From the NCBI RefSeq assembly GCF_044324875.1, contig NZ_CP172185.1: a stretch of DNA of 64,000 nucleotides; one strand, written 5' to 3'. Positions 3,604-59,458 of the stretch are shown in pieces; position 1 is the stretch's first letter, and each line of letters begins with the position of its first letter. Source of the stretch: Escherichia coli. Lineage in GTDB: Bacteria > Pseudomonadota > Gammaproteobacteria > Enterobacterales > Enterobacteriaceae. A model generated the notes under the pieces. The model was not told the DNA's origin. It searched no databases and worked only from the letters and a program-made list of their open reading frames with translations. The translations under genes were made by a program, and so were the position numbers.

Positions 3604-3690
3604 TGTAGGCCGGATAAGGCTTTTACGCCGCATCCGGCAGCCGTTGCCTGATGCGACGCTCGCGCGTCTTATCAGGCCTACACAGCCCTT
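3604..3690. repeat. REP/BIME-type palindromic element (gccggatg / catccggc units)
   Basis: Inverted copies of the canonical REP core (ggccggataaggc...gccgcatccggca, tgcgacgc...gcgtcttatcaggcctaca) in the infB-rbfA spacer. Confidence 0.6.
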
Positions 3691-19295: not shown

Positions 19296-20045
<750 letters not shown>

Positions 20046-20117
20046 TTATTCCCAAGAATTGATAGTGAGCGTAATATTCACGCGCTCAATTATCATAACT
20101 TATTCCTGGGGAATGCT

Positions 20118-21158
20118 ATGACTGGTCAGTCTTCATCTCAGGCGGCAACGCCCATTCAGTGGTGGAAACCCGCGCTTTTCTTTCTCGTTGTCATTGCTGG
20201 TCTCTGGTATGTGAAATGGCAACCTTACTACGGCAAAGCGTTTACTGCTGCCGAAACCCACAGTATCGGTAAATCTATCCTTGCGCAGGCGGATGCTAAT
20301 CCGTGGCAGGCGGCGTTGGATTACGCGATGATCTATTTCCTCGCGGTATGGAAAGCGGCGGTGCTGGGGGTGATCCTCGGTTCGTTGATTCAGGTGCTGA
20401 TCCCGCGTGACTGGTTGCTGCGTACGCTTGGGCAATCGCGCTTTCGCGGCACGCTGCTGGGAACGCTGTTTTCGCTGCCGGGTATGATGTGTACCTGCTG
20501 TGCGGCTCCGGTCGCGGCGGGAATGCGTCGCCAACAGGTATCGATGGGCGGGGCGCTGGCATTCTGGATGGGGAATCCGTTGTTAAACCCGGCGACGCTG
20601 GTGTTTATGGGGTTTGTCCTCGGCTGGGGCTTTGCCGCGATTCGTCTGGTGGCGGGGTTGGTGATGGTATTGCTGATTGCGACGCTGGTGCAAAAATGGG
20701 TGCGTGAAACACCGCAAACGCAGGCACCGGTCGAAATTGACATACCGGAAGCGCAGGGCGGGTTTTTTAGCCGCTGGGGCAGGGCACTATGGACGCTTTT
20801 CTGGAGTACGATCCCGGTTTACATCCTTGCGGTACTGGTGTTGGGTGCCGCTCGCGTCTGGTTATTCCCCCATGCCGATGGTGCTGTCGATAACAGCCTG
20901 ATGTGGGTGATTGCGATGGCGGTAGCGGGATGCTTGTTTGTCATTCCCACGGCGGCAGAAATTCCAATTGTACAAACGATGATGCTGGCAGGCATGGGAA
21001 CCGCTCCGGCGCTGGCATTGTTGATGACGCTCCCGGCGGTGAGTTTGCCGTCACTGATTATGCTGCGCAAAGCGTTCCCGGCGAAAGCCTTATGGCTGAC
21101 AGGGGCGATGGTGGCAGTGTCTGGTGTGATTGTCGGCGGGTTGGCGCTGTTGGCCTAA
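20118..21158 (+). CDS. yraQ: Permease-family inner membrane protein YraQ (346 aa)
   Basis: Polytopic membrane protein; translation matches YraQ. Confidence 0.9.
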   Translation: MTGQSSSQAATPIQWWKPALFFLVVIAGLWYVKWQPYYGKAFTAAETHSIGKSILAQADANPWQAALDYAMIYFLAVWKAAVLGVILGSLIQVLIPRDWLLRTLGQSRFRGTLLGTLFSLPGMMCTCCAAPVAAGMRRQQVSMGGALAFWMGNPLLNPATLVFMGFVLGWGFAAIRLVAGLVMVLLIATLVQKWVRETPQTQAPVEIDIPEAQGGFFSRWGRALWTLFWSTIPVYILAVLVLGAARVWLFPHADGAVDNSLMWVIAMAVAGCLFVIPTAAEIPIVQTMMLAGMGTAPALALLMTLPAVSLPSLIMLRKAFPAKALWLTGAMVAVSGVIVGGLALLA

Positions 21159-21192
21159 GATGTTGGATGCTCCTGAATACAGCACTGGACGG

Positions 21193-21230
21193 TCCCCTCT
21201 CCCCTTTGGGGAGAGGGTTAGGGTGAGGGG
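21193..21230. repeat. GC-rich palindromic element (box C-like; cccctctcccc...ggggagaggg...gggtgagggg)
   Basis: Perfect roughly 10-bp inverted repeat rich in C/G downstream of yraQ; resembles dispersed GC-rich intergenic palindromes of E. coli. Confidence 0.4.
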
Positions 21231-21279
21231 AACAGGTCGGCTAAGGTGTGAATATTTACTTCAACGACCGATCAATGGC

Positions 21280-21855
21280 TTATTTAATAAACGTAAACGC
21301 CGTGGTTACCCGCTTCACGCCGCTTACCCGGCTGGCAATATCTGCCGCCGCTTTCGCTTCACGTTCAGTCACTAGTCCCATCAGGAACACTTCACCGTTT
21401 TCGGTGGTCACTTTCACGTTGGACGATTTCACCAGGTCGCTGGTTAAGAGCTGCGAACGCACTTTGGTGGTGATCCACGTATCGTTAGACGCTTCGCCCA
21501 GACCAATCGGCTGGCCCTGACGAATCTCGTTATACACTTCGTTGGCACCGTCTACGCCCATAGCAATCTGTTTGGCGCGAGCCGAAAGTTCAGCGTTTGG
21601 TGACTGCCCAACCAGCAGCACTTTGCCCTGATACGCCGTGACATTAATACGGGTTTCTTTCTTAATCTGTTCGTCTTTCGACAATGCGCTGTTTACGCGC
21701 ACTTCCAGGGTACCATCGTCCACCTGGGTGCCGACACTGCGTGGGTCAGTTGCGGCTTTGGTACCTACAGCAGCGGTACCCACTACGGCAGCGGCAACAC
21801 AACCTTGCAACAGCAGCGCGGAAAGAAGGACTGCGATTGGCGATAATGCCTTCAT
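21280..21855 (-). CDS. dolP: Outer-membrane lipoprotein DolP (YraP), dual BON domain (191 aa)
   Basis: Lipobox LLQGC and two BON-like repeats; matches YraP/DolP. Confidence 0.92.
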   Translation of the reverse strand: MKALSPIAVLLSALLLQGCVAAAVVGTAAVGTKAATDPRSVGTQVDDGTLEVRVNSALSKDEQIKKETRINVTAYQGKVLLVGQSPNAELSARAKQIAMGVDGANEVYNEIRQGQPIGLGEASNDTWITTKVRSQLLTSDLVKSSNVKVTTENGEVFLMGLVTEREAKAAADIASRVSGVKRVTTAFTFIK

Positions 21856-21864
21856 GTATTCTCC

Positions 21865-22455
21865 TTAAACATCCTGGTGAGGGAAAAGCGTGTTATCGAT
21901 CAGATCGCACAGGCAATTTACCGTCAGCATATGCATTTCCTGAATGCGAGCACTACGATGCGAAGGAATGCGGATCTCCACATCCTGTGGCCCTAACAAA
22001 CCTGCAAGTTCACCGCCGTCATAGCCGGTTAATGCCACAATGGTCATATCACGCGTAACGGCAGCTTCTACCGCTTTTACAATATCGCGGCTGTTGCCAC
22101 GGGTGGAAATGGCTAACAATACATCTCCCGCATGACCCAGCGCCCGCACCTGTTTTGCATACACTTCATCATGTAAGCGATCGTTGGCAATCGCCGTTAA
22201 GACAACATTATCAGTATTTAGTGCAATGGCAGGTAAGCTGGGCCGCTCCGTTTCGAAACGGTTGATCATGCTGGCAGCAAAATGCTGTGCATTGGCAGCG
22301 GAAGTTCCATTACCACAACAGAGGATTTTGTTGCCATTGAGCAGAGACTGAACCAGCGTCATAGCTGCACGCGAGATGGCATCCGGAAGCGCCTCTGCCG
22401 CCGCAATTTGAGTTTGAATGCTTTCAGTGAAGCAAGCTTTAATTCTTTCTTGCAC
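21865..22455 (-). CDS. diaA: DnaA initiator-associating protein DiaA (SIS domain, 196 aa)
   Basis: Translation matches DiaA (phosphoheptose isomerase-like SIS fold). Confidence 0.93.
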
Positions 22456-22474
22456 GCTAATCCTTAAACCTTAA

Positions 22475-22870
22475 TTATGAGTGGTCATTAAAGGCATCCT
22501 TAATCCACTCAACCTCATTCCCGGTGAAGGCTACCACATCGAACCGGCAATCCACAGTATCAAAACTCCCATTATGACGCGCGAGCCACAAGCGGGCAGT
22601 CTGTAATAATTTGTGTTGTTTGCTGCGGGTCACACTGGCTGCCGCGCCGCCATAAAGCGCAGAGCGGCGGTAACGCACCTCGACAAAAACGGTGGTCCGG
22701 CCTTCACGCATTATCAGATCGATCTCGCCGCCACGCTCGTTCACGTTAGCGGCGATAAACCGCAGTCCTTTGCCTTCCAGCCAGCGACGCGCTTGTGCTT
22801 CCCACGCATCGCCGGTCTGTTTGGTGGTTAACTGGCGGGGACTACCTGACCTTGTTGGTACTGTAGCCAT
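22475..22870 (-). CDS. yraN: UPF0102 protein YraN (131 aa)
   Basis: Translation matches YraN; 5-prime end overlaps the lpoA 3-prime end. Confidence 0.85.
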
Positions 22871-31122: not shown

Positions 31123-31180
31123 TTGCCGGATGCGGCGTACCGTAGGTCGCATAAGACGCGTCAGCGTCGCATCCGACACC
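31123..31180. repeat. REP-type palindromic element in the agaA-agaS spacer
   Basis: gccggatgcggcg...cgtcgcatccgaca inverted REP cores. Confidence 0.5.

Positions 31181-59351: not shown

Positions 59352-59458
<107 letters not shown>

Follow-up and report, generated by a model that had tools for sequence, protein, structure and literature searches.

Judged by its sequence, the GC-rich palindrome between the convergent genes yraQ and dolP, in the 64-kb stretch of Escherichia coli DNA analysed here (the window), is a copy of a long-known dispersed repeat, variously called BoxC, PIT, TMECO (here of type A) and HPG1, and is not a new element. We put the probability at about 0.85 that it is a dispersed BoxC type A copy consisting of an A half and a spacer, a structure-prone passenger with neither a promoter nor a terminator role. 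Most likely it would have no dedicated function for yraQ or dolP; as a passenger in hypervariable intergenic DNA, it probably contributes to the variability around it. What we add to the known family is modest, namely the split of the locus into REP and BoxC alleles and the half-composite anatomy of this copy.

Identity and anatomy of the element

To what family does the palindrome belong? The published TMECO consensus is 5'-CCCTCNCCCN3-6GGGNGAGGGN3GGGNGAGGG[GTC-]-3' (Holder et al. 2015, PMC4666352), and TMECO is equated in that paper with the earlier BoxC (Bergler 1992) and PIT (Hoyne et al. 2000). The yraQ–dolP core, CCCTCTCCC-CTTTG-GGGAGAGGG-TTA-GGGTGAGGG-G, fits this consensus exactly: the regular expression matches at 21195-21229 and the final bracketed base, G, falls at 21230. 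The second loop is TTA (table 1), the published mark of type A (PMC4666352). The G-quadruplex motif HPG1, dGGGAGAGGGTTAGGGTGAGGG (Kaplan et al. 2016, PMC5100583), is present verbatim as the 21-mer GGGAGAGGGTTAGGGTGAGGG at 21209-21229, the C arm ending at 21204. From the consensus fit, the type A loop and the HPG1 21-mer we therefore conclude that this is a BoxC/PIT/TMECO element, and the label 'box C-like' given in an earlier note made from the sequence alone was well chosen.

Table 1. Positions in the 64-kb window of the two genes, the block between them and the parts of the BoxC unit.
Feature	Position	Strand	Basis or remark
yraQ (permease)	20118-21158	+	ORF list; name from RefSeq annotation of matching loci
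dolP (yraP)	21280-21855	-	ORF list; name from RefSeq annotation of matching loci
Intergenic block, 'BoxC allele', 121 bp	21159-21279		between convergent yraQ and dolP
Conserved 5' flank of the BoxC unit, cagcactggacGGTC	21180-21194	+	comparison of 11 oriented K-12 copies; alignment
C-rich arm, CCCTCTCCCC, pyrimidine strand of hairpin	21195-21204	+	10/10 Watson-Crick pairs
Loop 1, TTT	21205-21207	+	
First G-rich arm, GGGGAGAGGG, purine strand of hairpin	21208-21217	+	10/10 Watson-Crick pairs
Loop 2, TTA, marker of TMECO type A	21218-21220	+	type definition PMC4666352
Second G-rich arm, GGGTGAGGGG, candidate third strand	21221-21230	+	triad listing; alternative pairing
G-quadruplex motif GGGG-AGA-GGG-TTA-GGG-TGA-GGGG	21208-21230	+	includes HPG1 21-mer GGGAGAGGGTTAGGGTGAGGG
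3' extension, AACAGGTCGGCTAAGGTGTGAATATTTAC, 29 nt	21231-21259	+	homologous to central spacer of composite BoxC pairs
Residual 20 nt ahead of dolP stop codon	21260-21279	+	includes GACCGATC, 21266-21273

The sequences around the core point the same way. For comparison we took ten K-12 loci from table 1 of Holder et al., with eleven copies, the fabI/envM copy among them. All eleven, and the yraQ–dolP copy, have in common the flanks GYGCAC...RRNCGGTC upstream and GAACAG or GAAAAG downstream; those of the yraQ–dolP copy itself read ...CGGTC and GAACAG. The K-12 fabI–ycjD copy differs from the yraQ–dolP core at 2 of 35 positions and has the flanks ...ACGGTC upstream and GAA downstream in common with it. 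It was from a locus near envM/fabI that BoxC was first described (Bergler 1992, as cited in PMC4666352). At core position 6 the yraQ–dolP copy has T where the commonest K-12 form has G, a difference of one base. A G mismatch occupies this position in 13 of the 15 K-12 type A copies; with T in its place the usual G.A mismatch becomes a pair, and the stem of 10 bp is perfect.

The hairpin lies 37 nt past the yraQ stop codon and 63 nt past that of dolP. The program find_repeats reports a perfect 10-nt inverted repeat, 21195-21204 against 21208-21217, with the 3-nt loop TTT, and this bears out the perfect GC stem of roughly 10 bp that the earlier note had placed downstream of yraQ: all ten pairs form, and the motif quoted, tcccctctcccctttggggagagggttagggtgagggg, lies at 21193-21230, inside the interval 21185-21235 assigned to it. 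The program also reports a second pairing option, 21193-21203 against GGGTGAGGGGA at 21221-21231 (91% complementary), so that the element has three arms and not two. The description as a simple hairpin was thus right about the stem and overlooked the third, G-rich arm, which defines the family and makes the element a candidate for both a triplex and a G-quadruplex.

Within the window the 36-mer core occurs once (0.00 expected in shuffles), no further copy being found with up to 3 mismatches allowed, and of canonical G-quadruplex motifs the 64 kb has, both strands considered, only that of the element. No Rfam family reached its gathering score in a covariance-model scan of 20000-22500. The only match in that scan, whalefall-1, was rejected, since 15.1 bits against a gathering score of 37 (E = 2) is chance level. 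Ordinary REP units, of the GCCGGATGCGGCG and CTTATCCGGCCTAC types, lie at about 3605-3680, at 31125 and at 59425-59446. The sequences at these three places are unrelated to the yraQ–dolP element, as the earlier note had said, and the REP consensus (GCC[GT]GATG[CA]G[GA]CG ... CTTATC[CA][GT][GA]CCTAC) has no match in 21159-21279.

How widely is the element dispersed? We searched 5426 complete E. coli genomes with a 55-nt query (21186-21240). It matched 5417 of them, in a median of 17 places per genome (range 1-32), so the motif is not unique in its genome and its dispersal in E. coli, asserted in the earlier note, is borne out. In K-12 derivatives the query matched 20 places, which agrees with the published K-12 inventory of 23 TMECO copies at 18 sites (PMC4666352). 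The yraQ–dolP copy is intergenic, lying between two stop codons.

Other collections were searched as well. Only seven records of the phage collection match, several or most of them mislabelled chromosomal fragments. The 174-kb records of the Campylobacter phages A18a and A11a each contain three matches to the BoxC core at about 93% identity, which one would not expect in such a host and which may be due to contamination or misassembly. In the plasmid collection 809 records match; many of these are chromosomes entered as plasmids, or large replicons of Klebsiella, Rhizobium, Sinorhizobium and Azospirillum. Rhizobium contributes 116 plasmid records, Sinorhizobium 76 and Azospirillum 46, with 80-95% identity to the 55-nt query, so that three-arm G/C-rich motifs of a related kind are found well outside the Enterobacteria.

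How much of the spacer is repeat? Its extent is about 80 nt, roughly 21180-21259, made up of the 5' flank, the 36-nt three-arm core and the 29-nt tail. An identical 36-mer is listed for E. coli 042 in table S8 of Holder et al. (PMC4666352), and in that genome it lies between yijF and gldA within a composite pair: an A core, a 28-nt spacer and an inverted type B core. The tail at 21231-21259 matches the spacer of this pair at 22 of 29 positions, counted by hand position by position, and it aligns also with the spacer of the K-12 fepB–entC pair. At yraQ–dolP the B half is absent. The likeness of the tail to a pair spacer suggests that the copy is the A half and spacer of a former pair, from which the inverted B half is missing. 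Beyond the tail, GACCGATC is an inverted copy of the 5'-flank motif GATCGGTC seen at K-12 zntA–tusA, and the residual 20 nt may be the outer flank of the lost B half. This reading of a lost half is based on the 29-nt spacer similarity and an 8-nt motif; the partial-deletion 'palindrome effect' described by Holder et al. (PMC4666352) fits it. That a single type A copy can carry the spacer of an A–B pair suggests that singles arise by loss of one half.

Two alleles of the yraQ–dolP spacer

If the repeat is found in nearly every E. coli genome, how often is it found at this site? The full 121-bp BoxC spacer is present in 428 of the 5426 complete genomes (7.9%), and its right-hand 50 nt occurs in exactly the same 428, once each. 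Nearly all of the remaining genomes (about 5000) have yraQ and dolP separated by an unrelated REP-pair spacer of 113 or about 204 bp, to which the BoxC spacer gives no alignment. K-12 is among the strains with the REP version, and its 23 TMECOs all lie at other sites. The number of REP units at the locus is one in K-12, two in MB1 and in the GTDB E. coli representative, and at least three in the E. albertii representative. Because E. albertii and most E. coli have REPs here, the REP state is probably the ancestral one in Escherichia.

The two alleles are homologous as far as ...CTGTTG, late in yraQ, and again from the second base of the dolP stop codon onward, so that they differ in the final codon of yraQ and in the stop codon of each gene: the C-terminus of YraQ is LLA-stop in the BoxC allele and LLF-stop or LLV-stop in REP-allele strains, and dolP ends in TAA in the former and TAG in the latter.

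From where might the BoxC block have come? In the dolP loci of 80 other species the right-hand spacer has no match, the BoxC core apart. A BoxC-like element lies just after dolP in 6 of these 80 (Enterobacter sp. kpr-6, Phytobacter massiliensis, Enterobacter sp. Ag1, Enterobacter sp. Cy-643, Cedecea neteri and Serratia sp. H1w), in varying positions and orientations, a rate not clearly above chance for genomes with many BoxC copies. Within about 150 bp the dolP–yraQ spacer of Enterobacter sp. kpr-6 (2077-2226 of the locus) has three elements: a type B TMECO in inverted orientation, a unit CCCTCTCCC...GAGAGGG that is a hairpin only and lacks the third arm, and a type A TMECO. A tblastn search of the 1.5 kb downstream of dolP finds no yraQ in E. 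albertii, Citrobacter and Salmonella arizonae, and yraQ stands beside dolP in E. coli, Enterobacter, Klebsiella, Kosakonia and Phytobacter; yraQ is thus variably present next to dolP.

The yraQ–dolP locus has a parallel. Between adk and hemH, 2917 genomes have the K-12 spacer, with BoxC and an intrinsic terminator, and about 2500 have an unrelated allele that is 104 bp shorter. The shorter spacer has a different hairpin (GCAGATCTGC...GCAGGTCTGC). When K-12 is compared with O157 and PA45B, the difference is again the exchange of a whole block from the stop codon onward, as at yraQ–dolP, and not a clean insertion. The zntA–tusA copy of BoxC is nearly fixed, being found in 5412 genomes.

Is the block then held in place by selection? 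In 414-417 of the 428 carriers the BoxC spacer is at least 99% identical, and over 721 bp, flanks included, at least 99% identity is retained in only 9 genomes. Five carriers compared directly have 0-1 differences in the spacer, 13-44 of 1032 positions in yraQ (up to 4.3%) and 4-15 of 573 in dolP. In a sample of eight carrier strains, two of which were picked because they were variant, 3 of 121 spacer positions segregate as against 56 of 1076 in the flanking genes, a difference that is not significant (Poisson P = 0.13). A near-invariant BoxC block amid a divergent yraQ could mean selection on the block; the pattern is suggestive and not statistically significant. yraQ is unusually polymorphic among the strains compared, and its neighbour diaA differs at only 1-9 of 591 positions. 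Strain AF39 matches the window without a difference over 721 bp and is divergent outside, and this looks like a recombination mosaic.

TMECO loci have been described as hypervariable (Holder et al., PMC4666352). That the motif causes the local variability is a matter of correlation, drawn from one paper and two loci here (yraQ–dolP and adk–hemH). These observations would accommodate a spacer that is a long-standing cassette of two versions, REP pairs in 92% of genomes and half-composite BoxC in 8%, with breakpoints at both stop codons and a BoxC version almost constant even where the adjoining yraQ differs by 3-4%, and whose pattern reflects selection or directed exchange, or local recombination driven by BoxC, rather than history. 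We think this unlikely. Were selection or directed exchange at work, structured repeats of unrelated sequence would serve as 3'-end modules, each able to stand in for the other and passed whole from lineage to lineage; under the alternative, BoxC itself would drive local recombination. We favour a passenger copy of BoxC at a locus of high variability.

Termination, mobility and folding

Could the hairpin serve the ends of the two transcripts? The earlier note had suggested a terminator. A bidirectional terminator, or a stem-loop protecting the 3' ends of the convergent yraQ and dolP mRNAs as REP pairs would in other strains, has some appeal: a very stable 10-bp GC hairpin would be present in both transcripts, no other terminator-like site lies in the spacer, the alternative allele has REP pairs at the same place, and six of the 80 other species have a BoxC-like element just after dolP. 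But that last frequency is near chance occupancy for genomes with tens to more than 100 copies. A scan of 20900-21500 found 0 promoter-like and 0 terminator-like sites, and neither strand has a U-tract after the stem, the 3' sequence being TTAGGGTG on the plus strand and ACCGTCCA on the minus strand. PIT elements block DNA polymerase in vitro and, as far as their account in PMC4666352 goes, have neither promoter nor terminator activity and no effect in vivo (Hoyne & Maher 2002).

What happens to transcripts that run into a BoxC element? To answer this, we consulted the curated K-12 Term-seq tables of Adams et al. 2021 (PMC7815308) for eight BoxC loci and for the K-12 dolP–yraQ spacer. The adk 3' end, at 497,939/40, directly follows the U-tract that completes an ordinary intrinsic terminator and is 61 nt past BoxC #6 (497,843-497,878), so adk transcripts read through the element. 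Likewise, a Rho termination region lies at 3,504,972 downstream of frlR, 80 nt past BoxC #15, and frlR transcripts read through. No curated 3' end falls on any of the eight K-12 BoxC loci or in the K-12 dolP–yraQ spacer, although at weakly expressed loci a missing 3' end is weak evidence. Read-through and the lack of 3' ends on BoxC loci argue against both a terminator and a barrier to 3' exonucleases, and we regard either role for the yraQ–dolP copy as improbable. The other function that had been proposed, a protein-binding site, is unsupported: no binding protein is described in the BoxC, PIT, TMECO and HPG literature that we examined.

If the element is a passenger, did it arrive by transposition? 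In favour of a miniature mobile element, MITE-like or REPIN-like, the repeat is multi-copy, is confined to intergenic DNA and varies in copy number between strains from 1 to 32; the G mismatch common to 13 of 15 K-12 type A copies suggests a master sequence from which they were copied, and the exact 36-mer recurs at yijF–gldA in 042. Yet no target-site duplication was seen at the boundaries of the yraQ–dolP block, and neither there nor at adk–hemH is there a clean pair of filled and empty sites; since whole blocks are replaced at both polymorphic loci, an insertion junction cannot be defined. Terminal inverted repeats are lacking apart from the internal palindrome, the element is essentially absent from phages (the seven records include several chromosomal fragments), and we know of no partner transposase. 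Holder et al., too, found no link to mobile elements (PMC4666352). Insertion by transposition we accordingly consider unlikely, and a passenger remains our preferred reading.

How might such an element fold? Between the C arm and the first G arm 10 of 10 Watson-Crick pairs can form, and the third arm, read antiparallel to the purine arm, offers 10 of 10 triads that the class II purine motif permits (8 G.G, 1 A.A, 1 T.A). In double-stranded DNA, if the copy behaves as its family does, it would stay duplex. Were the G-rich strand to become single, the C arm would pair with the first G arm through ten Watson-Crick pairs, and the second G arm could then lie on the purine arm via the G.G, A.A and T.A triads to give an intrastrand purine-motif triple helix; a G-quadruplex of three tetrads would be a competing fold. 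Type A oligonucleotides form the intrastrand triplex rather than the G-quadruplex by CD and NMR, with a Tm of 82 C, and turn into duplex when the complementary strand is added (Holder et al., PMC4666352). In vivo DMS footprinting at a K-12 copy detected no stable triplex (PMC4666352), so the structure may never form in cells. An oligonucleotide with the perfect stem and the exact yraQ–dolP sequence does not appear in the main text of that paper. For the sister motif HPG2, CD shows a G-quadruplex that depends on K+ and a hairpin that depends on Mg2+ or Li+ (Kaplan et al., PMC5100583). The fold behaviour is thus established for the BoxC family, and the yraQ–dolP copy is a candidate triplex or G-quadruplex.

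In RNA the choice would narrow to hairpin or G-quadruplex, for purine-motif triplexes do not form in RNA according to literature cited in PMC4666352. On both strands the centroid structure predicted for the intergenic RNA is the hairpin, at about -21 kcal/mol, as against -12.6 kcal/mol for the RNA G-quadruplex (ViennaRNA). The fold of the full spacer RNA has z = -0.29 on the plus strand and -2.29 on the minus strand, so beyond the hairpin nothing is notable.

A regulatory switch among G-quadruplex, hairpin and duplex that tunes transcription of the neighbouring genes, as in the HPG1 model, is very improbable in spite of the exact HPG1 21-mer with its four G-tracts and 3-nt loops and of the ion-dependent folds of HPG2, since NMR of TMECO oligonucleotides fits a triplex and not a G-quadruplex, the duplex always prevails once the complementary strand is there, the hairpin is predicted to be the more stable in RNA, the place of the element is 3' of both genes and away from any promoter, and the copies hold no consistent position relative to genes.

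Relation to known repeats

What does the finding amount to? The family was described in 1992 and restudied in 2000, 2002, 2015 and 2016 with no proven job, and one more copy matters little in itself. Its annotation is settled as BoxC/TMECO type A, neither terminator nor REP. The spacer is a presence/absence marker that divides E. coli 8% to 92%, with a possible use in typing, and the REP and BoxC versions are natural alleles with which one could test whether BoxC does anything.

Like a Rho-independent terminator, the element forms a stable, GC-rich stem-loop shortly after the end of a gene; unlike one, it has no U-tract, and read-through is documented at K-12 copies. REP and BIME elements are likewise GC-rich palindromic intergenic repeats, and REP pairs fill the same spacer in 92% of E. 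coli genomes and in E. albertii. However, their sequence is unrelated, and REPs have no third arm and no potential for a G-quadruplex or triplex. For REPs a transposase family of their own (RAYT) and protein partners are known; for BoxC we know of neither.

With HPG1 the comparison is one of names. The 21-mer is identical and is preceded by a C-rich region, there is no difference in sequence, and we regard the two as the same element, although the regulatory role proposed for HPG1 in PMC5100583 finds no support in anything found here. Composite BoxC pairs differ in that the yraQ–dolP copy has the A half and spacer only. Against the type A copies of K-12 two differences stand out, a perfect stem in place of the G mismatch of 13 in 15, and a site that in K-12 holds REP pairs and is not among its 23 copies. 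The yraQ–dolP element resembles BoxC/PIT/TMECO type A in that it has the exact consensus, the TTA loop and the flanks, and in that it is intergenic, multi-copy and seated at a locus that varies from strain to strain.
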